Shown in pieces: positions 1-39,493 of a stretch of DNA of 39,493 bases (the first letter of the stretch is position 1; every line of letters starts with the position of its first letter). The DNA is taken from the IMG/VR virus record IMGVR_UViG_3300045988_085990, positions 1 to 39,493 of that record; one strand, 5' to 3'. A program made the translations under genes and the position numbers. The notes under the pieces are model-generated. The model did no database searches and was not told where the DNA came from. It worked only from the letters and a program-made list of their open reading frames with translations. The DNA comes from a virus.

Positions 1-37
1 CTTCCTTTAGTTACTTAGGAATACTTAGGGGTTCCTC
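1..37. repeat. 37-nt terminal overlap, identical to 39457..39493 (junction of a circular or permuted assembly)
   Basis: Read directly: cttcctttagttacttaggaatacttaggggttcctc is present at both window ends. Confidence 0.95.
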
Positions 38-55
38 TGTATGTGTGACAATTAA
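32..55 (-). promoter_or_regulatory. Putative phage-RNAP promoter, second of a tandem pair downstream of the RNAP gene
   Basis: Minus strand reads TTAATTGTCACACATACAGAGGAA. The 15-nt core TAATTGTCACACATA is invariant in all six copies, and all are oriented with the genes. Confidence 0.75.
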
Positions 56-139: not shown

Positions 140-2698
140 TTAGTGAAAAACGAACTTACTATCTAAGATACAGTTGATGTCTAACGAACCCTTTTCAGGG
201 AGTTCAATGTCTAATGGTTCCCCTAACAGCTCTTCAGCGTGTCTCAAGAACTCAGCTAAGGGGTCATGCTCAGTGTACAGCTTGACTAACTCTTGTCTAA
301 TAATACGCCGCAATCGAGCCGCTTCACCGAGGGAAGTCCCAAACGAGTCATGTACGGTACTGAAGTTCACACACCCTTGTCTACTTGCTTCATTAATACT
401 CATCATGAGGTGTGTAGCATCTAGGGAGTGGATGAAGTTCGGAGCGACACCTGTAGCTTGCTTGTGTCTGTCTACGTCTTCGTTCTCACTTACTGTCGTT
501 ACATAGATACGATAGCGTGTGGAGGAGTTACCAAGGCGTAATTGGAACGACTCCGTTTTCCGTGCTAGGTACATCTGCTGAATTGGCAGACCCATAGGCG
601 TCACCCATTCGACAGGCATATCCGCTTTTGCAAGAGCCGCGGCAATCTTCTTTAGACATTCCATACCTTCAATGGCGGCAACGACTGTCGTCTGTACTGC
701 CTTCCAAATTAACTTTGCGAGGTACTGAGCCGCTTGTCTTTCACCGACACCAGCAAAGCAAGGATTGTCCGCCACAGTGTCTTCATAAACCTGGTCAGCA
801 AAACCATACTGCCCACTTCCGTAAGCTAGGGTCATGACAGGACGCTTGCATACTTTGCGATTGATACCATGAGCGAGCCACGCTTCCGCCAACTGCTTCG
901 TTCCCGGCCCAAATGTACCATCCTTACGCTGTTTTCCTTTTAAGGTTCCTTCTATAGCATCTTTCTTAACCATTGTCAAGACCTTATCGGAAACTTCTCT
1001 ATAAATATCTGCTGGCTTGTCATGATCAATCAAGTTGACAGAGGAGCCACCAACAGGGTCACGGAGAAGACAGCTGTAGTGCTGAAGACCTGAGCATGTA
1101 CCGTCATATGCGATTGTACAACGGCAGTCAAAACCTGCTAGGGTCTTATGTGTGTCTAAGTATTCTAAAGCTCTCTTGTATTCCATCGTCCATGCTAAAA
1201 ACTGCCACGGCTTGTCTTGTTCTTGCCACCAAGTAAAGTCCAATGGATTTTCAGCACTAGACAAAATGTTCTGCTTGTTTTCCTCTACCCATGTCACACG
1301 GTCTTCCAGAGGAATTTTGTCATGACCTGCCAGCCCTGCCCCATGAATTGACAGCCACTTGAGGGCGTCGTGAGCGTCTTCAGCAGACACGGGTACAGGG
1401 TCAGCATACTGTAGCAATGCCTTTGTCATGTCGTCCCCTTGAGGGTTGAGGCCAGTCGGAATCGGATAGACACGGCCCCGAAAGTCTATGTTCATAGGGA
1501 ACCAGATTTTGTCATACTTTGCAAAGTCCTCAGCTACTCTGAGAATCATTACGGCTCTCAGGGCCTTCCCTTTGCGCTGGTTTTCCTTATGAATGACTTC
1601 TACCATTTTCTTTTTGTGCGCTTTGAACTGCTTGAGTAGCTCTTCATTTTCCTTAATTTCATCGTAAGCATGAGGGAAGCGTGGGAGTTGTTCGAGAGGT
1701 TTTGTCTCTGCTAGTCCTGCTACCCCACCACCAACACTCAAGTAGTGCTTGATTACTTCTAAGACAGGTTTGTTGATTCTATAGGCCGTTGCTTGAATCG
1801 CATTGACAGCTGAGTACAAACTAGACAAATCAAGTTCATTGAGTCTACTAGTATATAACTTGCGTGTCTGTGAAGACCTTGCGTAGGGGATGTAACGCAT
1901 TAAGGTTTTATTCTGAGACAAAGCCCCATAGTAACCCCCGTCCCACATGCTAGTCCATGGTTTCGGAGGAATAATAGTCGGTACATACGTGATAGCCTGA
2001 CCCACACTCTTGTCCTCTGCCTTAGCGATAGCCTGTAAAAAGATGTCCGTGGGGAGAACTTGTAAGGGCTGTGTCTTGCCTTCCTCAGACACTTCTTGAA
2101 AGACAAAGAAGTCCGTTGTTTCCACGAGTACCGCAAGTAATTGCATACCCAGTGTGGTTCGTTCCTTTGCGGTATGTTTGGTGAACGTAAAGCCTACACC
2201 CTTATAGACATGCTCCATGAAATTCCGACGGTACGAGAAATTGACACGCTCTTTGAGGCTCCGGTCAAAACGCTTGTTTTCTTTGTCTTCAAAAAATGCC
2301 ATTGCTTCTACTTCTGGCTCTAATTCAAGGCCGATTGCACCACCGATATTATTGGCAGTGAGGGAACGCCTCACCATAGCACTAATAGTAATTTTCAAAG
2401 ACAACGTAGCGCAAAGCCTAGCCAATTTTTCCGTGTCACCTTGTAATGCGAGTACATAGTCCTTGACGATTTTAGCGTAGGCAGGTTGTACCCCACGTTT
2501 CGGTTTTACGCAATCTTCTACGAACGCTTGTACATTTGCGGAGTACGTTTCTGCTAGGTGGTTCATGATACCCTGACCGACACGAGTCCGTTCATAGGCT
2601 CCGTCAGCTTTTGCCTTATTCAGCATTTGCAAAGCACGGTTTTCTGCTAAACCTTTGTACATCTTTTCAAGTTCTAACTGTTGTTCTAATGTCATCAT
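140..2698 (-). CDS. T7-like single-subunit DNA-directed RNA polymerase (852 aa)
   Basis: Motifs include RGRVYP, TLAYGS, PNFIHSLDATH and TVHDSFGT, with a C-terminal F-x-F-H-type end. T7 RNAP is 883 aa. An SD (GGAGAGAGGAG) precedes ATGATG. Confidence 0.97.
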   Translation of the reverse strand: MMTLEQQLELEKMYKGLAENRALQMLNKAKADGAYERTRVGQGIMNHLAETYSANVQAFVEDCVKPKRGVQPAYAKIVKDYVLALQGDTEKLARLCATLSLKITISAMVRRSLTANNIGGAIGLELEPEVEAMAFFEDKENKRFDRSLKERVNFSYRRNFMEHVYKGVGFTFTKHTAKERTTLGMQLLAVLVETTDFFVFQEVSEEGKTQPLQVLPTDIFLQAIAKAEDKSVGQAITYVPTIIPPKPWTSMWDGGYYGALSQNKTLMRYIPYARSSQTRKLYTSRLNELDLSSLYSAVNAIQATAYRINKPVLEVIKHYLSVGGGVAGLAETKPLEQLPRFPHAYDEIKENEELLKQFKAHKKKMVEVIHKENQRKGKALRAVMILRVAEDFAKYDKIWFPMNIDFRGRVYPIPTGLNPQGDDMTKALLQYADPVPVSAEDAHDALKWLSIHGAGLAGHDKIPLEDRVTWVEENKQNILSSAENPLDFTWWQEQDKPWQFLAWTMEYKRALEYLDTHKTLAGFDCRCTIAYDGTCSGLQHYSCLLRDPVGGSSVNLIDHDKPADIYREVSDKVLTMVKKDAIEGTLKGKQRKDGTFGPGTKQLAEAWLAHGINRKVCKRPVMTLAYGSGQYGFADQVYEDTVADNPCFAGVGERQAAQYLAKLIWKAVQTTVVAAIEGMECLKKIAAALAKADMPVEWVTPMGLPIQQMYLARKTESFQLRLGNSSTRYRIYVTTVSENEDVDRHKQATGVAPNFIHSLDATHLMMSINEASRQGCVNFSTVHDSFGTSLGEAARLRRIIRQELVKLYTEHDPLAEFLRHAEELLGEPLDIELPEKGSLDINCILDSKFVFH

Positions 2699-2709
2699 TT
2701 TAATCTCTC

Positions 2710-2733
2710 CTCTCTCCTATGTGTGACAATTAA
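2710..2733 (-). promoter_or_regulatory. Putative phage-RNAP promoter directly upstream of the RNAP gene (variant initiation region)
   Basis: Minus strand reads TTAATTGTCACACATAGGAGAGAGGAGAGATTAAAATG. The core is identical to the other copies. The leader contains the SD of the RNAP gene. Confidence 0.65.
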
Positions 2734-2748
2734 CAGAACATCTGTTTG

Positions 2749-2786
2749 GTAGCAGGTAACTTTTTCTATGTTCAGCTACCTGCTAC
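2749..2786 (-). promoter_or_regulatory. 10-bp perfect stem with 18-nt loop between the 76-aa early ORF and the RNAP promoter (possible processing site or early terminator)
   Basis: GTAGCAGGTA (2749-2758) pairs with TACCTGCTAC (2777-2786). No U-tract follows. Confidence 0.45.
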
Positions 2787-3586: not shown

Positions 3587-3605
3587 GGTAATTCCTCCCT
3601 TTTCT

Positions 3606-3665
3606 ACTAGTCCTCTAGGGACTTAATCGAGGATACTAAGGATAGCTAGTATCCTCTGTTAAATC
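3606..3665 (-). promoter_or_regulatory. Conserved early intergenic RNA hairpin module, copy A (candidate RNase III-type processing site)
   Basis: A 10-bp stem, GAGGATACTA (3629-3638) with TAGTATCCTC (3647-3656), has an 8-nt loop. The flanks TTTAACAG and TCGATTAAGTCC are shared with copy B and can form a lower stem across a 2x2 internal loop. Confidence 0.55.
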
Positions 3666-3666
3666 T

Positions 3667-4413: not shown

Positions 4414-4444
4414 ACTAGACACTCCCTTCTTTAATTAACTAAGT

Positions 4445-4500
4445 CACTAGTGGACTTAATCGAATACCCTAGAGAGAACCCTAGGGTACTCTGTTAAACC
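4445..4500 (-). promoter_or_regulatory. Conserved early intergenic RNA hairpin module, copy B
   Basis: An 8-bp stem (4465-4472 with 4481-4488) has an 8-nt loop. It has the same flanks (ggacttaatcga ... ctctgttaaa) and the same internal-loop geometry as copy A. Confidence 0.55.
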
Positions 4501-4502
4501 CG

Positions 4503-5032: not shown

Positions 5033-5290
5033 CTAGTCATGATAGATACGGATGCACCTATCACCATTCCCACGGATGAGGATATATTCACCTTTATCCT
5101 CGATAACATCACCTTTGTGGAGATAGTAAGTCGTTGCTGTGTATTCCATTCGTTCTAACGGTTCAAAGTGAGTTACCGTGAAGCACATGCGCCCACTTTT
5201 AAAGACACCCACTTCTTTAAACAGCCGAGTTTTTGCCATACATGCGACTCTCTTACCGTTTAAAGCCTTATACAGTTCTATTCTTTTCAT
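5033..5290 (-). CDS. Hypothetical first early protein (85 aa)
   Basis: First ORF downstream of the two sigma70-like promoters, with a purine-rich SD (AAAGGAAAGGAA). Confidence 0.65.
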   Translation of the reverse strand: MKRIELYKALNGKRVACMAKTRLFKEVGVFKSGRMCFTVTHFEPLERMEYTATTYYLHKGDVIEDKGEYILIRGNGDRCIRIYHD

Positions 5291-5318: not shown

Positions 5319-5347
5319 ATGTTACCATGTTCCTCAACGTTTGTCAA
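5319..5347 (-). promoter_or_regulatory. Host sigma70/sigmaA-type early promoter (proximal)
   Basis: Minus strand reads TTGACA, 17 nt, TAACAT, with TG at the extended -10 position (TGGTAACAT). It lies about 25 nt upstream of the ATG at 5290. Confidence 0.6.
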
Positions 5348-5393
5348 GCACCTTTTTGAATTTCCTTTAAGTGCTTTCCCTTTCGTTGACTAT

Positions 5394-5422
5394 ATGATAC
5401 CGTGTATTACTCCATTTGTCAA
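5394..5422 (-). promoter_or_regulatory. Host sigma70/sigmaA-type early promoter (distal)
   Basis: Minus strand reads TTGACA, 17 nt, TATCAT, with an A-rich UP-like tract (GAAAAAAGTTTGAAATA) upstream. Confidence 0.6.
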
Positions 5423-5729
5423 TAGGTATTTCAAACTTTTTTCAATGGTTCTCTATAATAGTATATATAGATAACAATATGTTTTACACCAATACCAATA
5501 GTTTGTTATAGGAATTACCAGCGGTTATATATGGTATTCCCATAGGTTATTATGCATTGGAGTTATGAGTGGTATTCCGGAGTGTAACATGCAGATATAT
5601 AATTTACTCTATTATGCACTTTGGGAATACTCCCCATACCCAATAGTTACCAATAAGAACCCTTCGTATCCCAAACAGTACCCAATAGGTAAGAAAAAAC
5701 GAACAGATGTTCTAAAAGTATAACCTTGT

Positions 5730-5810
5730 GGAATACCAATAGTACATCTGAGGAATATTATGGAATACCAATAGTACACCATAAGAATAGTATGGAATAC
5801 CAATAGTACA
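5730..5810. repeat. Three direct copies of GGAATACCAATAGTACA
   Basis: Copies lie at 5730-5746, 5762-5778 and 5794-5810. Confidence 0.9.
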
Positions 5811-5843
5811 CAATAGGAATAGTATGATAGAACGAATGTTCTA

Positions 5844-5945
5844 AAAAATATAGGTAAGACAAACAGTTAGGCGTACAAACCTTAGGGAATACAAACAGTA
5901 CACATTAGGTATACTATAGAAAAAATATAGGTAAGACAAACAGTT
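5844..5945. repeat. Perfect 25-bp direct repeat AAAAATATAGGTAAGACAAACAGTT (two copies)
   Basis: Copies lie at 5844-5868 and 5921-5945. Confidence 0.9.
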
Positions 5946-5955
5946 GGAGGTAGAC

Positions 5956-6051
5956 ACAGTTAGTAGTTAAAGAAGTTAGAAGTAGGAACAGTTAGGAATA
6001 CAAACAGTTAGTAGTTAAAGAAGTTAGAAGTAGGAACAGTTAGGAATACAA
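5956..6051. repeat. Perfect 48-bp tandem duplication
   Basis: acagttagtagttaaagaagttagaagtaggaacagttaggaatacaa occurs at 5956-6003 and again at 6004-6051. A third unit starts (acagtt) at 6052. Confidence 0.95.
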
Positions 6052-6315
6052 ACAGTTCACAGTAGGAAGCCTTAGGATACCGAATAGTTCGCAGTGGAAA
6101 TATTGAGTAATGAGAATATTCAGGGATACGAAAGAATACAGGGGTATACGGGGGAACTGCTGTGTGCTGTTCATTCATGTATGTGCTCATAAATTTTTCT
6201 ATGATTTTACTTTTAGGGTTTTCTAGGGCTATCCACGGAGAATAACCCTAGTAAACACATGGGAAAAGATAAGTATAAGGAGGAAAGTAGAAAAGGAAGT
6301 GTTTTTACTTTGTAA

Positions 6316-6541
6316 CACCTAACTGTAATACTGAAGGATTCCTTCAGAACACTAAAGGACTCCTAACTGTAATACTGAGTGATTCCTTACTGTTTTATAT
6401 AAGGAGTAGTTGTTGGTGCTGTTCCTTAGTTAGTTCCTATGGAGTTCCCTTAGAGTTCTCTTAGGGTTCCAGTTGTGTCCCCTTTGAGTTCCTAAGGTTC
6501 GGTGTTCTTTAGGATACTAAAGGACTCCCAACTGTAATACT
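6316..6541. repeat. Dispersed repeats and a palindrome downstream of the right-end promoters
   Basis: A 26-bp repeat actaaaggactcc(t/c)aactgtaatact lies at 6351-6376 and 6516-6541. A partial copy lies near 6318-6335. The perfect palindrome CTGAAGGA-T-TCCTTCAG lies at 6331-6347. Confidence 0.85.
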
Positions 6542-6608
6542 AAGGAATACTAAGGAATACTAGAGGAACAGAGGAAATACTTAGATATACTTTAGTTTTC
6601 CTCTGCCT

Positions 6609-6632
6609 TCCTTCTGTATGTGTGACAATTAA
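6609..6632 (-). promoter_or_regulatory. Putative phage-RNAP promoter after the terminase, pointing into the repeat/terminal region
   Basis: Minus strand reads TTAATTGTCACACATACAGAAGGA. Confidence 0.7.
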
Positions 6633-6636
6633 CGAC

Positions 6637-6660
6637 TTTGTATATATGTGTGACAATTAC
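6637..6660 (-). promoter_or_regulatory. Putative phage-RNAP promoter variant overlapping the terminase stop codon
   Basis: Minus strand reads GTAATTGTCACACATATATACAAA. The TAA of TAATTG (6657-6659) is the stop codon of the terminase large subunit. Confidence 0.6.
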
Positions 6661-7277
6661 CATTTCTTCTTCATAATGTTCCTATTACTACCTACATCTT
6701 CTTCTACTCCATACATCATAGAGAACAGCCCTCTATCTTCATCCAGAGCTGTCTCCAGAAACTCTTCTAACTGCTCATCCAGTCCAGTCTGGTAATCTCT
6801 ATCCATGACATCTAACCAGTAAGACACAGCCATAGTCAGGGCATCTAAGCGGTCATCGTGTGCCAAGGAACCCCTATCTCTACTTAGACGGGTCATCTGG
6901 TAAATCAGCGAATATTTCTGTCCCTTTTCCTCGTACACGCTGTAGTCATCTCGAATAACTGTTTCAGCCATGATAATCTTGTGTCTCATCATAACAGGCT
7001 CTAAGGTGTCTATAATACGAGCTTCCTTCTGTACTGTGTTCTTCACTTCCTGAACCGCACAGGGATAAATACTCGTTAGGATAGGCTTGAACAGCTGGGT
7101 GAACATACCGTCACCAAAGTTTGCTTCTACTACAATCTCATTAACTCCATGGATTTTAGCCTTGTTAGCCAGCTGTGTCAACACGGAATCTGAGTAACCG
7201 TCCTGAAAGCCCCCCACTTCTACTACAAAAAGATACCCATTCAGGTACTTCACGATAGCGTAGGCCGTTTCGTCCTT
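6657..7277 (-). CDS. Terminase large subunit, exon 2 (206 aa plus stop)
   Basis: It continues the T7 gp19 alignment exactly after DPSGRG: KDETAYA, GGFQDGYSD, NFGDGMF, YSLIYQMTR, ALAHDDRLDAL. There is no ATG or SD of its own. Confidence 0.9.
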   Translation of the reverse strand, partial: KDETAYAIVKYLNGYLFVVEVGGFQDGYSDSVLTQLANKAKIHGVNEIVVEANFGDGMFTQLFKPILTSIYPCAVQEVKNTVQKEARIIDTLEPVMMRHKIIMAETVIRDDYSVYEEKGQKYSLIYQMTRLSRDRGSLAHDDRLDALTMAVSYWLDVMDRDYQTGLDEQLEEFLETALDEDRGLFSMMYGVEEDVGSNRNIMKKKW

Positions 7278-8087
7278 CAATCAGCCTATTCGTTCTGCTT
7301 TCCAACCCTTTGAGTGATGTCGTTTTCCTTTAGCCACTAGACGTAAATTTTGGGGTGAAAGATTATGCTCTCTGCAAAAAACAGCAAAAGAAAAAGGCTC
7401 ATATATCGTACCATCAGGTGCAATGAGTCTGAATTTTTCACCCTGTCCATAATTATGAGGAACATTACCTTTTTGAAAAGTAGTAGGATGACAGTCACCA
7501 CATACTGTCCCTGACTTGCGTTTTGGTAAATATTTACCACAAATAGGACAACGAACTGTTTTTCTGTTTCCACCTGCCATTGAGTTCCACCCCATATTCA
7601 TTTTAGGGCGTAGATTATATTCCATTGCTAATGCTTCTTCTTTTGGTAACATAGCAATTAAATCAATTTGAATATTATCCTTACCCAGTTGTCTTAGAAT
7701 TGTGCCAACAGGTCTCTTACTACACATATGCTGACTAAGACGATAGGAAAGACTACGGCGAGTAATACCCACATAACCTTCCTGTATATTTCTGTTTCCT
7801 ACTTCATGAATATGGTACACTTTATATAATCTTGTTTTTTCTCTAAACAATAATATCACTCTCTTTTCTTTTTAGTGTTACGGTACTTCGTTAGGGTACC
7901 TCACTATATTGCTATAGTGTTCAGACTATATCTTCTATCAAAAGATAGTGCGCTGTTTCCACCGAACCATTGCGGTGTACTAATAGTCGTTGAACGTTTC
8001 CTATAAAAGGACTTCGCTGCTGATTGTCTTAGAAAGAGTTCCCAGCAATTAAACGCATTTTTTAACGTAGGAGCAAGGACGTATTTT
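7278..8087 (-). mobile_element. Group I intron (810 nt) in the terminase large subunit gene, carrying a GIY-YIG homing endonuclease ORF
   Basis: The 5' exon end AGGGGU pairs with intron GCUCCU (8069-8074), with a U.G pair at the splice site. The adjacent intron GUCCUU (8075-8080) is a perfect complement of the first 6 nt of exon 2 (AAGGAC), giving P10. The intron ends in G. The region 7860-8060 has several hairpins, including a GCAA tetraloop. Confidence 0.8.
7281..7859 (-). CDS. GIY-YIG homing endonuclease (intron-encoded, about 192 aa; start uncertain, GTG or TTG)
   Basis: It has YKVYHIH...GYVGIT...R..H...E.N (the GIY-YIG module), a Cys4 zinc finger (CPICG...CGDC), NUMOD3-like FQKGNVPHN and a C-terminal HTH-like segment ending KGW. 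Confidence 0.85.
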   Translation of the reverse strand: MILLFREKTRLYKVYHIHEVGNRNIQEGYVGITRRSLSYRLSQHMCSKRPVGTILRQLGKDNIQIDLIAMLPKEEALAMEYNLRPKMNMGWNSMAGGNRKTVRCPICGKYLPKRKSGTVCGDCHPTTFQKGNVPHNYGQGEKFRLIAPDGTIYEPFSFAVFCREHNLSPQNLRLVAKGKRHHSKGWKAERIG

Positions 8088-9185
8088 ACCCCTACCCGAT
8101 GGGTCTATAGCCATAACACACCCTGTATACTTAGCTGTCTCCTTGCTTCTACTATGCTCACGGTAGAAAAAGTCACCCTTAATGGCGACACAGGGAAGGT
8201 CGTTCAGGCGATACTCATAACCACTTGACCAAGACCACTTCAAAGAAGTTTCATCCATATCCACATTAGACACTATCAAGTCCTGTGTCTTCAGGGGGTA
8301 TTTTTCGTAGTCAGACAAGTTAGTATTCAGTTTGAACTGCAAAGAAAACCCTGCTTTACCATAGGAGAGCCTACGTTCCTCGATTTCTTCTTCAGGGAAT
8401 CTGCGAGGGTCAGTCGGCTTTCCTGCGTACAGCGTGGGGTTTTTGTCGTAAGGGATAGCAATAAAAGGAGCTAATTTGTCCCCGTAATACTCACGTTCTT
8501 CAGGTGTCTCAGGGTATACCAATGGAAAAATATAGCAGGAATACCCACGATTCTGAAGCTCATTGTACAGCGACATTTCGTTCTGTGGAGTACCGAGGTA
8601 TATAACCTTACTTCTATCCCCCGGCTTGATAATAGCGTCAAATTCCTTTACATCCTCAAACAGCTTGTCTCTCCGTGTCTGTGTGCTGGAGTTGTTGGGT
8701 ATCTCCACGTCATCGGCGATCAATATGTCTGCACGGCTCCCTGTTATCTGACCCGTAATACCAACAGACTTTACAGAGGGGGAAATATCCGCTACGGCTT
8801 CCCCAACATCAAAAAGGTTCTGTGTGTTACGCTGTCCGTCACGAGGTTTTAGATGAGACAAAAAGTCTAGTAAGTAGATTATCTTTCGGATAAACACTGC
8901 GTTTGCATCTGCTCTGTCTTTACTTGCAGAGATAATGAGACACTTCAGTTGAGGGTCATTCCAAAGTGACCACACAACATAAGCACAAGTGATGAAGGAC
9001 TTAGCTACCCCACGGAACCCTTCAATAATGTATCTCTTCTCAGGGCATTTCATAAGAAGAGTTGCGATTGCATACTGTATGTCTGTTGGTTCAGGAAGAG
9101 CGATTTCATACCAGAGAATAAACAGGAACTTCCTGAAGTCTTTCTTAGCCGCTTCAATTTGCTCTGCTGTCCATTGAACTTGCAC
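8088..9185 (-). CDS. Terminase large subunit, exon 1 (366 aa; GTG start)
   Basis: Strong by-eye match to T7 gp19: FRGVAKSFITCAYVVWSLWNDPQLK, SPSVKSVGITGQITGSRADILIADDVEIP, VIYLGTPQ, YGKAGFSLQF, IDPSGRG. AGGAGG lies about 9 nt upstream of the GTG. Confidence 0.93.
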
Positions 9186-11874: not shown

Positions 11875-13545
11875 TTAGTATTTAATTTGTGCAATCAGAC
11901 AACATGCAGGGGGCTGTACGGTATCAGAGTTACCATAGATACTAGAAGAACGTGAAGCATCGAATGTAAACCCATTACCACGGTTAACATGTTGCTCATC
12001 CATACCTAGATGTGAGAACCCTGTAGTGTAATCAGAGAACGCACCACTAGCGGAAGTACCAGCGCCCCAGCCATATGCAGTATCCCCAGGAACTACTGCA
12101 CCTGTAATATTTGGTAATCCTGCACTCTTTGTGCTTAGTTCATCCCCTCCCTGTAAGACTCTCCCCATTGCATTAGGAACCTTTAAAGTATCTGCACTTG
12201 CATCATAAACGTACTTTGTAGCACTATTGGCGCTCCATTCACTATCAGACACACAAAGATTGTTGTCCTGAGCAAATTTAAGTAAGCGAGGATATTCACT
12301 AGCTTTTACTGTTGCTCCATTCGCCTTGATGTATCCATCATTCAGTGTAGGCTTAAGAACAATGTCACCCACACGGTTGCCATCCCTTACATCATCAATG
12401 ATAAATATAGCTGTTCCGTCTGTAATATATTGGCCTGCAAGCTGTGTAGTACCTAAGGCAGGTGGTACAGAGGTAGCTGTTGTGCCTGCTTTAACACATT
12501 CTAATCTTCCCCATGAAGGTAAGTAAGAGGAATATGCAATATCACCTATGGAGTACGCTTTATTCCTCTTCAACATATTGAAGTCCATAGCGTTCTCAGT
12601 GGCTACCCTTGCGCTTTCAGCGGCGTTCTGCTCAGACACACGAGCGGCATTTTCAGAATCCTTAGATTTTGTTTCCGAGGACTTAGCATTGGTTTCAGAA
12701 GTCTTTGCATTAGCTTCCGATGTAGCCGCTTTTGTTTCCGAGGATTTAGCATTGGTTTCAGAAGTCTTTGCGTGTGTCTCAGAACTCTTAGCGTTCGTTG
12801 CGGACGTTGCCGCTTCCTGCGCCTTCGTTTTGCTATACAAAGCCCACTCTTTAGCACTCTGTGTCTTCCCTGTGGTACTATCCGTATCCGCTTCACCATC
12901 TGGAGAATCCGTAGCTTCTGCCCACTTCTTCGCCTTTTGATGAGAGCTTTCGGAGTTGGTTTCAGAAGTATGAGCATTTGTCTCCGAGGTCTTAGCGGCT
13001 TCCTGAGAAGTCTTTGCGGCGGACGCTTGCTTCGTTGCTTCCTGTACCAAGATTGTATTGGTCGTTACAAAACCGTTCTGTACGCTTTCCATGTAGTGCT
13101 TCGTTACTGCGTCTTGAGGGTCTTTGGGGTCTTTTACGTTAATGACACGAGAACCTAAAGCATTAAAATTAACCCCATCAGGATACCTAGACAAAGAGTT
13201 TAGTATAGGGTAGTCCTGAGCTTCTTCAATAAGGTGTAACTGCTGTAAATTCTCCAGTGTCATCTGAGACGCCTTAATAAAAGCCCCATCTGTCCACTCA
13301 ACAATCCTGTCCGAAGGAGTCTCACGGTATACCCTGATAGCTACTCCCACGGCAGGAGTATCCGTTAGGGTAACGCTACGGTCATCCACAGTATAGTCAG
13401 TAAGGTAAGTGAGGGGAGGAGTATCAGCCCCCACTTGTACCTTCACGAACTGCTTATTGATATAGTCGAACCCAAAGTAAAATCTATTTGTAGAGCCATC
13501 TCCCACAAAGGAAACGCTCGCTTTCAAGTTTTGAATATTCACCAT
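11875..13545 (-). CDS. Tail fiber (556 aa): T7 gp17-like N-terminal adaptor, repetitive coiled-coil shaft, tail-collar-like C-terminal domain
   Basis: The N-terminus (GDGSTNRFYFGFDYINKQFVKV ... VEWTDGAFIKASQM) resembles T7 gp17. The shaft has AKTSETNAKSSETKA-type repeats. The C-terminus (ANGATVKASEYPRLLKF ... LKVPNAMGRVLQGG) resembles a phage tail collar domain. Confidence 0.88.
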   Translation of the reverse strand: MVNIQNLKASVSFVGDGSTNRFYFGFDYINKQFVKVQVGADTPPLTYLTDYTVDDRSVTLTDTPAVGVAIRVYRETPSDRIVEWTDGAFIKASQMTLENLQQLHLIEEAQDYPILNSLSRYPDGVNFNALGSRVINVKDPKDPQDAVTKHYMESVQNGFVTTNTILVQEATKQASAAKTSQEAAKTSETNAHTSETNSESSHQKAKKWAEATDSPDGEADTDSTTGKTQSAKEWALYSKTKAQEAATSATNAKSSETHAKTSETNAKSSETKAATSEANAKTSETNAKSSETKSKDSENAARVSEQNAAESARVATENAMDFNMLKRNKAYSIGDIAYSSYLPSWGRLECVKAGTTATSVPPALGTTQLAGQYITDGTAIFIIDDVRDGNRVGDIVLKPTLNDGYIKANGATVKASEYPRLLKFAQDNNLCVSDSEWSANSATKYVYDASADTLKVPNAMGRVLQGGDELSTKSAGLPNITGAVVPGDTAYGWGAGTSASGAFSDYTTGFSHLGMDEQHVNRGNGFTFDASRSSSIYGNSDTVQPPACCLIAQIKY

Positions 13546-24009: not shown

Positions 24010-24046
24010 ATAATAAAAATAAGAGGGAGTTCCTAAGAACCCCCTC
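24010..24046 (-). terminator. Hairpin plus U-tract terminator just after the major capsid gene (analogue of T7 T-phi)
   Basis: RNA sense reads GAGGGGGTTC-TTAG-GAACTCCCTC, a 10-bp stem with one G.U pair, followed by TTATTTTTATTATT. Confidence 0.8.
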
Positions 24047-30391: not shown

Positions 30392-30547
30392 CTAATGGCA
30401 ATCTGCCCAGTTCTTACCAATCTTACCTTCCGTATCTAATTGACACCTGAAGTTGAAATATCGCTGTGTGTCTCTCATAGCCTGTTGAGCTTCCTTAATG
30501 ACAATTTCAGCAATGCCTTCAGTACGACAGGCAATCTGTTGCTCATC
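30392..30547 (-). CDS. DNA polymerase, exon 2 (51 aa plus stop)
   Basis: Hand translation gives DEQQIACRTEGIAEIVIKEAQQAMRDTQRYFNFRCQLDTEGKIGKNWADCH. This aligns with the T7 gp5 C-terminus HDEIQVGCRTEEIAQVV...NFRCLLDTEGKMGPNWAICH. Confidence 0.92.
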   Translation of the reverse strand, partial: DEQQIACRTEGIAEIVIKEAQQAMRDTQRYFNFRCQLDTEGKIGKNWADCH

Positions 30548-31165
30548 CTTACTGTATTCCCTTATTACTAAGGGTGTCGGACTATATCATTAGCATATGA
30601 GGTTTATGCTACTAGGCGCTTCGGGTAACAGGGGAATCACACCCCTACCCCTACTCCTTACGGATAGTCTCTACGCTTTCCACTCTCTAATCCACTTACA
30701 TGTGGTAGAGAACGACACACCAAATACTTTAGACAAAGCTATACCTGTACAATGATTTTTCATCCAATATTCTTTAGCTTTATCCTTACGTTTCTTATAA
30801 CGCAAGTGGTTATCTTTCTTAGCATGTTCACTTCCTTCGAGCATTTGAAGGTGTTCAATATTACAACATGCTCTATTTTTGCATATGTGGTCTATTTCAT
30901 ACCCTTCTGGTATCTTACCATATGTCTGTTCCCAAACATAGCGATGATACATAACCAATGGGGATCTACCCTTACCATTACGTGTGGGGCGGTATCTGAA
31001 ATAACCATCTGCATTTAATTTGTGTGACGTAGGGACAATGCATCCATTATCCAGTTTCTTCAAAATCAATGGTTTACCTCGCATATGTCCTCCTGTGGCT
31101 TAGTTCGGTATTGCCCCTTAGGGGTTTCACCGAGTTCACCTAGTTTAATGTGCACAATGAAGTCT
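30548..31165 (-). mobile_element. Group I intron (618 nt) in the DNA polymerase gene, carrying an HNH homing endonuclease ORF
   Basis: The exon end GUGCAU pairs with intron GUGCAC (31150-31155), with a U.G pair at the splice site. UCAU just 5' of it can pair with exon 2 AUGA (P10). The intron ends in G. The 3' part has hairpins, including CCCTTA-GTAA-TAAGGG (a GNRA loop) and a GACTAT...ATAGTC pairing. Confidence 0.85.
30671..31084 (-). CDS. HNH homing endonuclease (137 aa), intron-encoded
   Basis: HRYVWEQTYGKIPEGYEIDHICKNRACCNIEHLQ (HNH with a Cys cluster). AGGAGGACAT SD. It has a C-terminal HTH-like tail. Confidence 0.88.
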   Translation of the reverse strand: MRGKPLILKKLDNGCIVPTSHKLNADGYFRYRPTRNGKGRSPLVMYHRYVWEQTYGKIPEGYEIDHICKNRACCNIEHLQMLEGSEHAKKDNHLRYKKRKDKAKEYWMKNHCTGIALSKVFGVSFSTTCKWIREWKA

Positions 31166-33027: not shown

Positions 33028-34815
33028 TTAATCACTATCACCTGCCTTATTGTAGATACGCAACCCAGCTTCCTTCTGTCTTGCTTCGGAAAAACTAGAA
33101 ATACGTTTGAGATAACCAATGACCCGTGTCGCATAATCAATGTCTTTGGAACCACACTTTGTACAGTGATTTTCCGTATTGACATTGATAAAACCACAGT
33201 CATTACACAATGTCATGAGAACGTTAAATGTCCAATAATTTACTCCCAGCTTCCCTGCCATACAAATCAGTTCATACGCCTGTTCCTTAGACATAAGCTG
33301 TTCCAAATTGAGATGACAAGCAGAACCACCATCAAGCCACTGCGTATTTTCCTTTCCATGAAGTCTCAGTTTGTCGATAATGTTATAGGAGTCATCTTCT
33401 ACAGGGAAGAAATAGCTGTTGTAACATCCCCGTGGAACCTGCAAGCCATCTTCCTTGTCCCACTTTGCGTTTTTGACACCGAGGTTTTCGGCAGGTACAA
33501 ATTCAGTATTAAACTTAACACCTGTCAGCTTCTTCCACTCTTTGTTATTATCATAAATTTCCTTGAGATACTGAGAGAAGAAGGTTGTGTCGGCTTTACC
33601 TCGTTCAAACTCAGACGCTTCCAGCATCCCATTAATACCAATGGTGCAAAACTGCTTGTCTAAGCTAATAAATCCTGTAGAGTAAGCAGGAAGCAAGCCA
33701 CCTTCAATGTAGTCCTCGATGACAGCTCTGTGAGCCAAGAGGTACATATGGACTCGTCCAAGTAACTTTGAAAACGCTTCTTCCTTTGTCTGTACATAAC
33801 GATTCATATTGATCGTGATGACCTGTACGGAACCTGTAGACACCCCACCTGCACCCAATGTATAGGAGAATGTGTTGTCCGTGAACTCGTTACGCAAGCG
33901 ACAGCAGGAAGACAAAGAGTCTACACTATCACTCTCATAGACAAAGAAGCTCAGGCCCTTAGACATTTCCTCAGCACATGCCCATGCAAAATGTTTGTCT
34001 TTCGGTTTCCCTTCAGCATCCACCAAGAGGGAAGCGGTCAGTACGGGATACGTGAGTAACGCACGTTCTCGCTCTTGTCTAAACCATTCCATAAAGAACA
34101 TCTGCAATTTGCGGAATGTACCTTCGTATACAGGCTGTGTCCCGTCGGGAAACTTAAAGCCCCCAAACAGCTGCTCAAAGTAGAAACGGTCTAATACCGA
34201 GATATTCCAGAAGACACTCTGATTACCACGAGCAGAAGCAGGCTGATTCAAGGCATACACTACACCCTGCAAAGCCTGTCTAACATCCGCTGTATGCAAG
34301 TCAATGTAGTCATCTCCCCATGTCTTCTTTGCAAAATAATCAAAATACAAAAGGAACTCTACCGTAGCGATAGCCCCTGCAAATCCAGAAGCCACCTGAT
34401 ATACAAGGTTGACAAAGGAACCACAGAAACTATGGATGTTCCTTGGTGCTTCGCTTGTGCCTCCCAGCGGTTTCGTACCATGGAGTAGGAAGGGGAAAAG
34501 TGTGATAGACGCACAGTAAGGACGTAAGGAAGTTTCATCATGGATATAAATTCTATGTTCTTCGATGTCCTCAATGTACTTCTCAGCTAACTTCTCACCA
34601 TACATCTCCGTGAGTTTCCGCTGTACTAAAGCACGGTTTACCTGAATGGTATCAGGCTTATACATCTCAGCTTCCAAGATACCAATATTCTTTGTGTCTA
34701 CATTGGCATTAGCATCCACCAAGGAACCACTTGCACTGTTCTGACTGTGAATGTAGTGGTCAATGTATTTAATTTTCTCTTCAATCTGTTCTTTTGTTAA
34801 ATTAAGTAACGGCAT
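33028..34815 (-). CDS. nrdD: Anaerobic (class III) ribonucleoside-triphosphate reductase NrdD (595 aa)
   Basis: C-terminal zinc ribbon CNDCG...CTKCG followed by the glycyl-radical motif TRVIGYL. It is adjacent to the activase gene. Confidence 0.92.
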   Translation of the reverse strand: MPLLNLTKEQIEEKIKYIDHYIHSQNSASGSLVDANANVDTKNIGILEAEMYKPDTIQVNRALVQRKLTEMYGEKLAEKYIEDIEEHRIYIHDETSLRPYCASITLFPFLLHGTKPLGGTSEAPRNIHSFCGSFVNLVYQVASGFAGAIATVEFLLYFDYFAKKTWGDDYIDLHTADVRQALQGVVYALNQPASARGNQSVFWNISVLDRFYFEQLFGGFKFPDGTQPVYEGTFRKLQMFFMEWFRQERERALLTYPVLTASLLVDAEGKPKDKHFAWACAEEMSKGLSFFVYESDSVDSLSSCCRLRNEFTDNTFSYTLGAGGVSTGSVQVITINMNRYVQTKEEAFSKLLGRVHMYLLAHRAVIEDYIEGGLLPAYSTGFISLDKQFCTIGINGMLEASEFERGKADTTFFSQYLKEIYDNNKEWKKLTGVKFNTEFVPAENLGVKNAKWDKEDGLQVPRGCYNSYFFPVEDDSYNIIDKLRLHGKENTQWLDGGSACHLNLEQLMSKEQAYELICMAGKLGVNYWTFNVLMTLCNDCGFINVNTENHCTKCGSKDIDYATRVIGYLKRISSFSEARQKEAGLRIYNKAGDSD

Positions 34816-35032
34816 GTCTCACCTCTTTCTCCATGTCCTCCGCATAAATGCACGGAGACAAAGTTTTATCCCCTACAACTACGGTAGGAAACAGCTCAAA
34901 TTCTTTTGATTCAGTCACACACGTTACCTTAAAGGCTACGTTCGGAAATTTCTTGACTACCTTTGGAAGTCCTTTAAGAAGTGTGTCGCAATACATACAA
35001 TCTTTAATGACATAAATACTTACTTCCATCAT
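34802..35032 (-). CDS. Glutaredoxin/NrdH-like small redoxin (76 aa)
   Basis: CMYC (CxxC) near the N-terminus of a fold about 75 aa long. It lies between nrdG and nrdD. Confidence 0.7.
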   Translation of the reverse strand: MMEVSIYVIKDCMYCDTLLKGLPKVVKKFPNVAFKVTCVTESKEFELFPTVVVGDKTLSPCIYAEDMEKEVRHAVT

Positions 35033-35511
35033 TTGTCTCCCTTGTGAAATTTATAGTTCTGTACTTCGAGGAACAGCTGGTTCGTGTCGGGATTGTCCAG
35101 ACCTCCCAGCTCTTCTCTGTATGCACCCACTTTTACCCAGCGACAATACTTACAAGCTGTGAATAAATCCATAGCATCCCAAGCTCCCAAGTAGATACCA
35201 ATGTTGATACCTAAGTTGTGGAGAGGCTTCAGTACAGTCTCAGCAAATTCTTCAAAGTCCATGTGATTACGATTACCACCCATGAAGAGTACCGTATTGG
35301 TAACACTCTTGTAGCTCTTGATGAGAGACAAAAGCTCTTCGGATGTCAGTTCATTGCACTCATGTGTATCCCACAGGTAATCACTGTGACACCCCCTGCA
35401 ATGACATTCACATTTTCCTAAGTTGATGACCAGTGAGATTTTGTCAGGGATTTCATTCAGCGTGACACCATGAGAATACACAGGAATTTTAAAATTCTGC
35501 TTCATCATCAT
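35029..35511 (-). CDS. nrdG: Anaerobic RNR activating protein NrdG (radical SAM), 160 aa
   Basis: CxxxCxxC cluster within CECHCRGC. Size and adjacency to nrdD fit. Confidence 0.88.
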   Translation of the reverse strand: MMMKQNFKIPVYSHGVTLNEIPDKISLVINLGKCECHCRGCHSDYLWDTHECNELTSEELLSLIKSYKSVTNTVLFMGGNRNHMDFEEFAETVLKPLHNLGINIGIYLGAWDAMDLFTACKYCRWVKVGAYREELGGLDNPDTNQLFLEVQNYKFHKGDK

Positions 35512-37894: not shown

Positions 37895-38434
37895 TTAGAA
37901 GTCTACCTCGTCGTCCAGCGTGGTTTCTGTCTCATCATCCGTATCTCGCTTCTTAAATGTCAGTTCGTCAGAACCGTCTTTAGAATACTTAACGAGATTT
38001 GTAACCATCAAGCACTGAAGGTACAGGCGAACACCCCACTTCTTTGTGCTTTCATAGTACAGTTTGGGATTGACGACAACTTCTACGTCGGAACCATTGC
38101 CAATAAGAACGTCTTCGGGAATCAGTTCGCCGTATTCATTGTAGACAGGGATAACCTTCGATTTTTCTACCCCTGTTGCCTTGTCTTTATACACATGCTT
38201 AGTTTTAACCTTGACCATTTCCAGACCTGCGTCTGTAGTTTTAATCGGCATCGTGATGTCACCTAACATCTTCTTGCCTGCAAATTCTTCTTGACATTTA
38301 GCTTCAAAGTATGCCTTCATCTTTGCTAAGTTTTCGTCAGGCATCAAAACCTGCATCGAGAAGCCTACAGGCTGGCCGTTGTATGTTTCTGGTGTTCTAA
38401 TTTTTGCCCAATATGCTTTACCTTTAATTTTCAT
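37895..38434 (-). CDS. ssDNA-binding protein, T7 gp2.5-like (179 aa from the ATG at 38434)
   Basis: The acidic C-terminal tail ends in an aromatic residue (DDETETTLDDEVDF), as in gp2.5. AAGGAGA SD. It is syntenic before endonuclease I. The ORF-track upstream extension overlaps dut. Confidence 0.8.
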   Translation of the reverse strand: MKIKGKAYWAKIRTPETYNGQPVGFSMQVLMPDENLAKMKAYFEAKCQEEFAGKKMLGDITMPIKTTDAGLEMVKVKTKHVYKDKATGVEKSKVIPVYNEYGELIPEDVLIGNGSDVEVVVNPKLYYESTKKWGVRLYLQCLMVTNLVKYSKDGSDELTFKKRDTDDETETTLDDEVDF

Positions 38435-38936
38435 TTGCTTTTGTCTCCTTTGTTTCTGTGGTAGACCCAAAGCCACCACTGCGTTTTTTGTTTTGGATAG
38501 GGTTAATGTGTTTTCTTTCCTCTGTATGTGTGACAATTAATTCAAATCCCCACTTCAGGGTAGAAAAAGGCACTAATTGTGCTATCCGAGTACCACTTTT
38601 GATATGAATTGAGTTTTTAGACAAATTGTCAAGTAGTAAGCAGATTTCTCCTTTGTAGTCTGAGTCAATCAGACCGACGCCATTAGACAAACGGAGAGGA
38701 GTCTTCAGGCCAACACTTGACCGTAACATAATATGTACTTGCATCCCTTCAGGAATATCTAAAGAAAATCCCAAGGGGACTAATGTTCCTTTACCCCGAA
38801 TACTGAACGGCTCAATGACGACATCATCAGGGACAACAAGGTCTGCTCCTGCTGAACCCTGTGTCTTGATTTGAGGTACTTCAATGCCATCCCGTAAGGG
38901 TTTGAATACGATAGACAAAGGTTTTTTAGTCCTCAT
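38424..38936 (-). CDS. dut: dUTPase (170 aa from the ATG at 38936)
   Basis: Motifs GSAGADL, RSSVGLK, GLIDSDYKGEI, RIAQLV and C-terminal RSGGFGST. Confidence 0.92.
   Translation of the reverse strand: MRTKKPLSIVFKPLRDGIEVPQIKTQGSAGADLVVPDDVVIEPFSIRGKGTLVPLGFSLDIPEGMQVHIMLRSSVGLKTPLRLSNGVGLIDSDYKGEICLLLDNLSKNSIHIKSGTRIAQLVPFSTLKWGFELIVTHTEERKHINPIQNKKRSGGFGSTTETKETKANEN
38517..38540 (-). promoter_or_regulatory. Putative phage-RNAP promoter embedded in the dut coding sequence, upstream of the SSB gene
   Basis: Minus strand reads TTAATTGTCACACATACAGAGGAA, identical to copies 32-55 and 39381-39404. It is read in-frame as ELIVTHTEE between dUTPase motifs 4 and 5. Confidence 0.7.
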
Positions 38937-39351
38937 CTGCCAGTGCTTCACCTCTTTCAAGTTTTGCTAACCAATGCTCATAGACACGAATCTTGTCCAC
39001 CTCTTTCTGAATGTCGTCCTTGTGTCCCATGCGTAACCGGTATTTCAAAATGTTACCTTTGATGAAGCCTTTAAGTTCTTCTTTGGTAAACATCTTTTCC
39101 ATGACCTTGATAGGTTCGACAACAGCTTCTAAGTAGTGCTTGTCATGCTTGTCATGTTCTTCAACTTTCTGCACTCTGTCGTCACTGACAAGAATATACG
39201 TGTCAGTACCACGCAAGCGAACTTCATAGCACAAGACACCTGACAGCTCCATATGCCTCTGGATTTCTCCGTACACATAGTCATCATCAATGCCGTCAAA
39301 CTTACGCACATCGACACGGACTGTTTCATAATCACGCAAGACTTTCTTCAT
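38926..39351 (-). CDS. DUF3310-like protein with an extra N-terminal domain (141 aa)
   Basis: C-terminal EPIKVMEKMF...FIKGNILKYRLRMGHKDD...KIRVYEHWL resembles the DUF3310 signature. AAGGAGG SD. It is the first gene after the tandem promoters. Confidence 0.7.
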   Translation of the reverse strand: MKKVLRDYETVRVDVRKFDGIDDDYVYGEIQRHMELSGVLCYEVRLRGTDTYILVSDDRVQKVEEHDKHDKHYLEAVVEPIKVMEKMFTKEELKGFIKGNILKYRLRMGHKDDIQKEVDKIRVYEHWLAKLERGEALADED

Positions 39352-39380: not shown

Positions 39381-39404
39381 TTCCTCTGTATGTGTGACAA
39401 TTAA
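39381..39404 (-). promoter_or_regulatory. Putative phage-RNAP promoter, immediately upstream of the first DNA-metabolism gene
   Basis: Minus strand reads TTAATTGTCACACATACAGAGGAA. It lies 30 nt upstream of the ATG at 39351. Confidence 0.75.
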
Positions 39405-39456
39405 TTTTGCCCTAGGAATACTTAGGAATACCTAACTATACTTACTCCTAAATAAT

Positions 39457-39493
39457 CTTCCTTTAGTTACTTAGGAATACTTAGGGGTTCCTC
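39457..39493. repeat. 37-nt terminal overlap (second copy of 1..37)
   Basis: Identical to nt 1-37. Confidence 0.95.

Follow-up and report, generated by a model that had tools for sequence, protein, structure and literature searches.

Six minus-strand elements of a circularly assembled T7-like phage genome as very probable promoters of its own RNA polymerase

The window analysed here (the whole of IMG/VR virus record IMGVR_UViG_3300045988_085990, 39,493 nucleotides) carries six copies of a short element that, judged from sequence comparisons, are very probably the promoters of the T7-type RNA polymerase (RNAP) encoded by the same phage. Their consensus is undescribed; the system itself (a T7-type RNAP with promoters of its own) is of a well-known kind, and a private consensus is to be expected because the phage is a divergent T7-like one. 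The added value of the analysis lies in an allelic series (two residues, two bases), a transcription plan without late promoters, and a prophage link to Megasphaera.

The ends of the window overlap by 37 nt (positions 1-37 equal 39457-39493), so that the assembly is circular, with 39,456 bp, and represents a complete T7-like genome (about 39.5 kb). A megablast search with 20 kb revealed no DNA-level similarity to GenBank phages. Gene content and order are T7-like when read on the minus strand:

First part, minus strand: non-coding repeats (6608..5450), sigma-70-type promoter matches, small early genes including a SprT-like one, RNAP gene (2698..140)
Middle part, minus strand: DUF3310/kinase-like gene, dUTPase-like gene, gp2.5-like SSB gene, endonuclease I, primase-helicase, NrdG and NrdD, DNA polymerase
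Late part, minus strand: portal, scaffold, capsid, tail tube, internal proteins, fibre, split terminase large subunit
5422..5394, minus strand: near-consensus sigma-70-type match, TTGACA-17-TATCAT
5347..5319, minus strand: near-consensus sigma-70-type match, TTGACA-17-TAACAT with TG
5450..6608, minus strand: non-coding region with short direct repeats, downstream of a tandem pair of elements; probable genome-end region

Both sigma-70-type matches closely precede the first early ORF (5290..5033), and the host RNA polymerase is likely to use them as early promoters.

The element is defined by a 15-nt core, TAATTGTCACACATA, of which a scan of the whole 39.5-kb window found six exact copies, all on the minus strand. 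Because all large ORFs lie on that strand, the first-pass annotation was right to speak of the gene strand, and each core falls inside one of the six 24-nt spans that it had listed; its statement that three copies are identical over 24 nt also stands, TTAATTGTCACACATACAGAGGAA being shared by 55..32, 38540..38517 and 39404..39381. The copies are (span, with the plus-strand coordinates of the core in parentheses):

32..55, minus strand (core 40-54): first copy downstream of the RNAP gene, TTAATTGTCACACATACAGAGGAA, with orthologous copies in relatives
2710..2733, minus strand (core 2718-2732): 19 nt before the RNAP start codon, TAATTGTCACACATA followed by GGAGAGAGGAGAG
6609..6632, minus strand (core 6617-6631): second copy of the tandem pair, 28 nt past the first, TAATTGTCACACATACAGAAGGAAGG, facing the 1.2-kb non-coding repeat-rich region
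6637..6660, minus strand (core 6645-6659): first copy of the tandem pair, whose own TAA (6659..6657) also serves to end translation of the terminase large subunit
38517..38540, minus strand (core 38525-38539): inside the 3' end of a dUTPase/dCTP-deaminase-like ORF (38960..38424)
39381..39404, minus strand (core 39389-39403): 38 nt before the ATG of a DUF3310/nucleotide-kinase-like gene (39351..38926)

The expectation that an exact 15-mer repeats even once by chance in 39.5 kb is far below one, and the number of matches to the core with up to three mismatches (eight) was reached in none of 100 dinucleotide shuffles. With a weight matrix built from the six sites, these score 32.6 to 44.4 bits, while the runner-up reaches 5.6 bits on the minus strand and 2.3 on the plus strand; the scan thus returned six sites only, and no weaker or degenerate extra copies on either strand of the window. 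A search of the window for 11-mer families with one mismatch allowed gave no convincing second repeated motif, the recurring words (TTTGTCT, AGACA) being composition-like and located within genes.

The copy in front of the RNAP gene implies autogenous transcription of that gene from its position 19 nt before the start codon; the position is kept in relatives, where the 3' end of the copy is degenerate. An AAGGAGG ribosome-binding site separates copy 39381..39404 from the ATG of the DUF3310 gene, and copy 38517..38540, upstream of the gp2.5-like SSB gene, is the last before some 32 kb of replication, structural and packaging genes. The copy at 32..55 sits on the circular junction (it was not double-counted) and is followed by a spacer of 92 nt made up of short CCTAAGTA-type repeats; on the circle the two post-RNAP copies are 107 nt apart. 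Four relatives have three copies after the RNAP gene against two in the window, which lacks a 73-nt unit that in relatives is located between two identical copies. When window positions 39381-39493 and 1-55 were compared with L011 10046-10250, the 37-nt assembly overlap was found just upstream of the missing unit. The loss is either a real recombination deletion or an assembly collapse; since the unit is bounded by identical copies, the true copy number could be seven if the assembly has collapsed it.

In the tandem pair, the first copy continues as ATATATACAAAG and not as a purine run. In all sequences compared (6637-6660 of the window; L199-L258, L278, L363) an AT-rich tail takes the place of the purine run, and in most lineages the tail ATATATACAAAG is kept even where the 3' part of the second tandem copy differs wholly. 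Conservation of this tail in place of a purine run suggests that the first tandem copy has a separate function.

The polymerase to which we assign these sites, and the part of it that matters for promoter choice, are placed as follows:

140..2698, minus strand: T7-type single-subunit RNAP, 852 aa
494..556, minus strand: codons for RNAP residues 715-735, which align with the T7 specificity loop

From end to end the protein can be aligned with T7 RNAP (phmmer against the T7 RNAP chains in PDB, E 1e-126, residues 6-851), and the RNAPs of relatives carry the Pfam domains RPOL_N and RNA_pol. As many as 2738 GenBank phage records match it, the best at about 36% identity. By alignment, R721 corresponds to T7 R746, G723 to N748, R730 to R756 and Y732 to Q758; the two arginines of T7 (R746 and R756) are hence retained, whereas N748 and Q758 are replaced by G and Y, and the loop is one residue shorter between the arginines.

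Relatives were obtained by scanning IMG/VR for the core and for RNAP relatives, their DNA being 82-93% identical. Among 16 related genomes the copies within a genome change in concert at core positions 8-9, which read CA, CC or TC, and four promoter types are discerned:

Type A: TAATTGTCACACATA + CAGAGG; positions 8-9 CA; genomes with 6, 7, 7, 5, 5, 2 and 2 sites
Type B: TAATTGTCCCACATA + CAGAGG; positions 8-9 CC; genomes with 7 and 7 sites
Type C: TAATTGTCCCACAGA + GTAGAGG; positions 8-9 CC, with a changed 3' part; genomes with 5, 5, 5 and 4 sites
Type D: TAATTGTTCCACAGA + GTAGAGG; positions 8-9 TC; genomes with 5 and 2 sites

The rule of one type per genome has a sole exception. In two Megasphaera sp. 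assemblies, and in the short Logan contig L035, whose RNAP is the same, the copy that precedes the RNAP gene is type-A-like (CA), though the RNAP and the remaining copies are of type C. This is in line with a swapped early module, and it follows that not every copy need be cognate. In the one copy that lies within a coding region the core is invariant, while surrounding synonymous sites vary. Whole-collection scans with the type B and type C cores gave mostly single chance matches and no further genomes.

The promoter types are mirrored in the polymerase. Across an RNAP alignment of ten genomes (L032 not counted), residue 719 alone among 852 positions distinguishes type A (Q) from types B and C (R); it lies two residues ahead of R721, the equivalent of T7 R746. 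Substitution Q719R goes with a change of A9 to C, and R728L with a change of C8 to T. The covarying residues are confined to the specificity loop, with none elsewhere among 256 variable positions. The switch between Q719 and R719 is seen inside two separate RNAP clades, and therefore does not go back to one inherited event: in one clade the window and L024 stand against L030 and L031 (95-96% identity), in the other L025 and L026 stand against L033 (98% identity). As a test by prediction, the R728L variant P0076 was chosen from the RNAP protein alignment alone and its contig fetched afterwards: C8 is changed to T in all five of its sites, a previously unseen type, while the control P0074 (R719/R728) has type C promoters. 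The independent covariation events among related genomes are few, about two for Q/R and one for R/L, plus distant Q lineages. In protein-DNA recognition generally, Gln is paired with A:T and Arg with C:G, and Arg is lost when C:G becomes T:A; the pairings Q719-A9, R719-C9, R728-C8 and L728-T8 are consistent with this textbook behaviour of side chains and bases. Together these observations back the earlier proposal of an RNAP/promoter pair with its own specificity. Covariation of loop and promoter is also known between T7 and T3, as with N748D; here it concerns the equivalents of Q744 and Q754, and not 748 or 758.

The claim that the element differs from known consensus sequences holds as well: a blastn search of GenBank phages with a 34-nt probe gave two chance partial matches only, and no report of the motif as a promoter was found in the literature searched. 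Its make-up is that of the T7 group (T7, T3, K11, SP6): a strand-specific element of about 23 bp with an AT-rich 5' part, CAC, and a purine-rich start; the length, the AT-rich part and the purine-rich start had been recognised by the first-pass annotation. The consensus of SP6 contains GTGACAC and that of K11 GGCACAC, and core positions 6-12 of the window (GTCACAC) resemble both. Unlike the T7 group, the window elements lack TATA before the start and have CAC one base nearer to the TAAT part, and the genome has only six or seven copies and no class III (late) promoters. In their places, several sites parallel T7 phi-1.1A/B, phi-2.5 and phi-OR, and a hairpin after the capsid gene parallels T-phi. 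As with phi-1.1A and phi-1.1B (the primary origin of T7), promoters are paired after the RNAP gene with a repeat-containing spacer; as with phi-OR, promoters after the last gene face the genome end, an arrangement that is family-wide. Their positions suggest possible roles for these sites in replication and packaging. For the tandem pair (spacing 27-28 nt, with the conserved tail on its first copy) we know of no T7 counterpart. Cyanophage Syn5, from a marine host, is another T7-like phage that has very few promoters and a consensus of its own; it shares both features with the window, and its consensus sequence is not known to be related.

The same sites might be bound by another phage protein, as operators, iterons or packaging signals that mark origins or ends and not transcription starts. 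Indeed, copy 55..32 and both tandem copies, half of the six, face non-coding repeat-rich DNA and no gene directly, the first tandem copy has its own family-wide conserved 3' part, and the equivalent sites of T7 also serve in replication and packaging. Every copy, however, is oriented with the genes, and three of the six stand at promoter distance from ribosome-binding sites; the layout is of the T7 type, the variation follows residues of the RNAP specificity loop, and a replication or packaging role would most simply act through RNAP binding, as it does in T7. Binding by another protein is therefore highly unlikely in our judgement.

Identity of the copies would also be expected if they were selfish or neutral repeats homogenised by gene conversion, with hitch-hiking as the reason for their link to RNAP alleles, and recombination between copies does occur (the 73-nt unit lost from the window). 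Against such an origin, the positions of the sites are kept down to 38% RNAP identity while their sequence is replaced, and the covarying residues fall only in the specificity loop. Moreover, L199, with a terminase C-part 100% identical to that of the window, carries a different promoter type, so that promoter type is independent of flanking divergence. We regard this account as scarcely credible. Even less can be said for promoters of the host RNA polymerase with TTGTCA as a -35-like hexamer: the hexamer agrees with TTGACA at five of six positions, yet none of the six sites has a sigma-70-type match on the gene strand in a consensus scan (matches overlapping the core are on the opposite strand only), near-consensus host-type promoters are found elsewhere (5422..5319), and no covariation with the loop of the phage RNAP would be expected; the probability is close to negligible. 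Promoters of the phage RNAP thus remain the preferred reading of the six elements.

The start site within these promoters is probably A17 or G18 of TAATTGTCACACATAC-A-G-AGG, with an uncertainty of 1-2 nt. The first-pass annotation had placed it at G18 (CA|GAGG), by an anchoring on TAAT that we reproduce, and this stands in part: most related lineages have a pyrimidine at position 17 and purines from 18 onwards, which favours G18, whereas anchoring on CAC gives A17. Fixing +1 at A17 through the CAC of T7, T3, K11 and SP6 was considered and found not decisive, given the purine run from 18 in most lineages; in all lineages the run starts at 17 or 18. The CAC at core positions 10-12 is conserved family-wide and is followed by ATAC, or by AGAGT in type C. 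The bases before the presumed start, ATAC or ACAGAGT, differ from the TATA that T7, K11 and SP6 have there; some relatives (L194, L298) do have CACTAT.

The consensus of the window, on the sequences compared, is lineage-specific and a member of a wider family, TAATTG-NNN-CAC-N5-purine, in metagenomic phages. Around the RNAP gene the layout is preserved in lineages whose RNAP is 58%, 57% and 53% identical, and every one of them has a consensus of its own (TAATTGTCCCCCGTTATGGAGAAG, TTATTGTCCCACTATTAAGAG and TAATTGTCCAGTAGTATAGAGAG, respectively). In the general layout a single site precedes the RNAP gene and two or three follow it, another precedes the SSB gene, and a tandem pair follows the terminase gene; the same set (with two sites after the RNAP gene) is found in a lineage with 38% RNAP identity. 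The tandem pair is kept even where the terminase C-part is only 65% identical, with CA, CC, TC, GG and GC as alleles of positions 8-9. Among 80 further RNAP loci, many lineages have 2-4 identical copies of the form TAATTG-NNN-CAC-N5-purine run flanking the RNAP gene, and in this family the NNN triplet and the specificity loop appear to vary together. A Q at the equivalent of position 719 is always accompanied by C8-A9 (six lineages), K by GG, and R by xC or Gx, and also by xGA triplets. A family-wide code of one residue for one base was dropped, R and K at this position accompanying several triplets. With more than 600 terminase relatives in IMG/VR, the window is part of a large uncharacterised clade of T7-like phages with a minimal plan of six or seven promoters that is kept across deep divergence.

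This plan does not extend to the late genes. The first-pass annotation had found no copy before the structural genes, and the weight matrix agrees: there is no site from 38517 to 6660 on either strand. Whole-contig exact scans of close relatives gave no late-region sites, nor did the 43-kb contig of the lineage with 38% RNAP identity. Of the two explanations offered earlier, long read-through and divergent late promoters, the former is favoured, there being no weaker sites, no second motif, and the same picture in the 38% lineage. The simplest explanation on this evidence is that transcripts from the pre-SSB promoter read through over a long distance; because the site set is kept without late copies in the 38% lineage, the absence of late promoters is a conserved trait, and read-through into the late genes looks like a family trait. 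One possible interruption is the best terminator-like hairpin of the window:

24023..24046, minus strand: 10-bp stem followed by TTATTTTTAT, directly after the major capsid gene

From these elements a course of transcription can be proposed. Host RNA polymerase would initiate at the sigma-70-type promoters near 5420 and 5345, and would transcribe the early genes and then, reading on through a strong hairpin, the gene for the RNAP. The new RNAP would bind TTAATTGTCACACATA, its specificity loop presumably reading positions 8-12 (as the covariation supports), and would initiate 2-3 nt past the 15-nt core, at A17 or G18 of ...ATAC-A-G-AGGAA. From the copy in front of its own gene a positive feedback would arise. 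The two post-RNAP copies and the pre-SSB copy would serve the genes of nucleotide metabolism and replication and, by about 32 kb of read-through, those for structure and packaging, with partial termination expected at the post-capsid hairpin. From the tandem pair downstream of the terminase gene, transcription would run into the genome-end region, as from T7 phi-OR. The strong hairpin that precedes the promoter in front of the RNAP gene has a 13-bp stem (-26 kcal/mol, z -3.65).

The promoter before the RNAP gene is directly adjoined by a further element:

2734..2749, minus strand: palindrome-like element CCAAACAGATGTTCTG; its end is 1 nt upstream of the promoter that precedes the RNAP gene

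In relatives its form is perfect, a 16-bp CCAAAC-N4-GTTTGG, and in nearly all of them it abuts (by 1 nt) both the promoter before the RNAP gene and the third post-RNAP copy; the 73-nt unit absent from the window includes it. Palindrome sites were noted at 2734-2749 and 56-71 of the window (minus strand) and in L007, L011, L012, L015, L027-L033 and L191-L193, and a further free-standing copy occurs about 360 nt upstream. By its sequence and place the palindrome looks operator-like.

A comparable arrangement has been described for LUZ100, a Pseudomonas phage of a T7-like lineage with temperate features, in which eight phage promoters with a private consensus were mapped by transcriptomics, one of them (phi-1) directly upstream of the RNAP gene and another before the capsid gene (PMC10134795). 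Its authors propose a positive feedback under repressor control, with sites for a MarR-like regulator flanking phi-1 (PMC10134795). Like LUZ100, the window has few phage promoters and one right before the RNAP gene, in the window with an abutting palindrome. In contrast to LUZ100, it has no capsid-gene promoter, its relatives carry an XRE-type HTH gene and not a MarR-like one, and the host phylum differs.

Two relatives with 90% RNAP identity, L033 and L034, are prophages in Megasphaera sp. (GCA_041327815.1 and GCA_027494185.1, respectively). They adjoin host TetR and RND-efflux genes, contain IS insertions, and have genes for a tyrosine integrase and an XRE-type HTH protein; the more distant relatives L193 and L195 have a tyrosine integrase too. 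A search of the early region of the window gave no match to an integrase or HTH gene, and for this reason the window seems to be a virulent phage within a clade that is in part temperate. Scans of the GTDB representative genomes found neither RNAP relatives nor the type C 24-mer, so that the host link rests on the two NCBI Megasphaera sp. assemblies (found through a protein index). No report that ties Autographiviridae to a host among the Negativicutes was found in the literature searched, and the Megasphaera prophages extend temperate T7-like phages to this group.

A joint reading of these results has five parts: the RNAPs and promoters would form a natural orthogonal series in which Q719R re-targets A9 to C and R728L re-targets C8 to T; the phages would make up a T7-like clade, not described before, that infects gut Negativicutes (Megasphaera) and has temperate as well as virulent members; the RNAP gene behind its own promoter with the abutting palindromic operator would be a positive-feedback switch; this switch could decide between lysis and lysogeny; and one promoter would express the entire 30-kb middle and late region. 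That all five hold together, allelic series, new Megasphaera clade, switch and single promoter, we consider a little short of probable. If verified, a pair of RNAP and promoter whose polymerase shares about 36% identity with that of T7 would be a candidate part for orthogonal transcription, and the natural variants suggest that two loop residues set two promoter bases, giving three or four closely related pairs that are possibly mutually orthogonal.

Several further features of the genome deserve mention. Repeats in region 5450-6608 consist of CTAAGTAT, GTATTCC, and periodic units of 16 and 32 nt, while CCTAAGTA-type repeats fill the spacer between the post-RNAP promoters (1-31 with 39405-39493) and are also present in L197 (47% RNAP identity); the two repeat regions are candidate genome-end and origin regions. 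The heptamer ATCTGTT, the core of the T7 class II pause/termination signal, occurs eight times antisense; its single gene-strand copy (5708..5702) lies within the terminal non-coding DNA, is followed by CGTTTTTTC, and may mark a pause site like that of a concatemer junction. Two early spacers (3587-3666 and 4423-4502, minus strand) are mutually similar, with paired hairpins (tttaacagag..ctag..tcgattaagtcc..), and recall the RNase III processing sites between the early genes of T7. An extra, off-type promoter-like site, TAATTGTGCCACATA, stands before a 247/251-aa early gene at L012 6664 and L192 675; the matching spot in the window (4423-4445) reads TTAATTAAAGAAGGGA, as if the core had been deleted.

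The gene for the terminase large subunit is in two pieces, both on the minus strand: an N-part of 378 aa (9185..8049) and a C-part of 207 aa (7280..6657). The stretch at 7275-8176, between the two, holds a group I intron (RF00028, 8176..7902, 80.4 bits, Rfam) and an HNH endonuclease ORF (7859..7281); L011, L012, L020 and L021 are without window positions 7275-8086 and hence represent intron-less terminase alleles. A second group I intron is probable in the DNA polymerase gene (30402-31144, minus strand), where an HNH ORF (31084..30671) and 269 nt of non-coding DNA separate the 572-aa ORF of the DNA polymerase from one of 230 aa, with an RF00028 match at 30785..30558 (29.6 bits, E 1.9e-5, below the Rfam gathering score). 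The tail-fibre-like ORF (13545..11875, 556 aa) has eight in-register 21-nt (7-codon) tandem repeats at 12646-13017. Finally, genes for NrdD (595 aa) and a NrdG-like activase (160 aa) are located between those for primase-helicase and DNA polymerase (33028-35511, minus strand), and such anaerobic ribonucleotide reductase genes fit a strictly anaerobic host.
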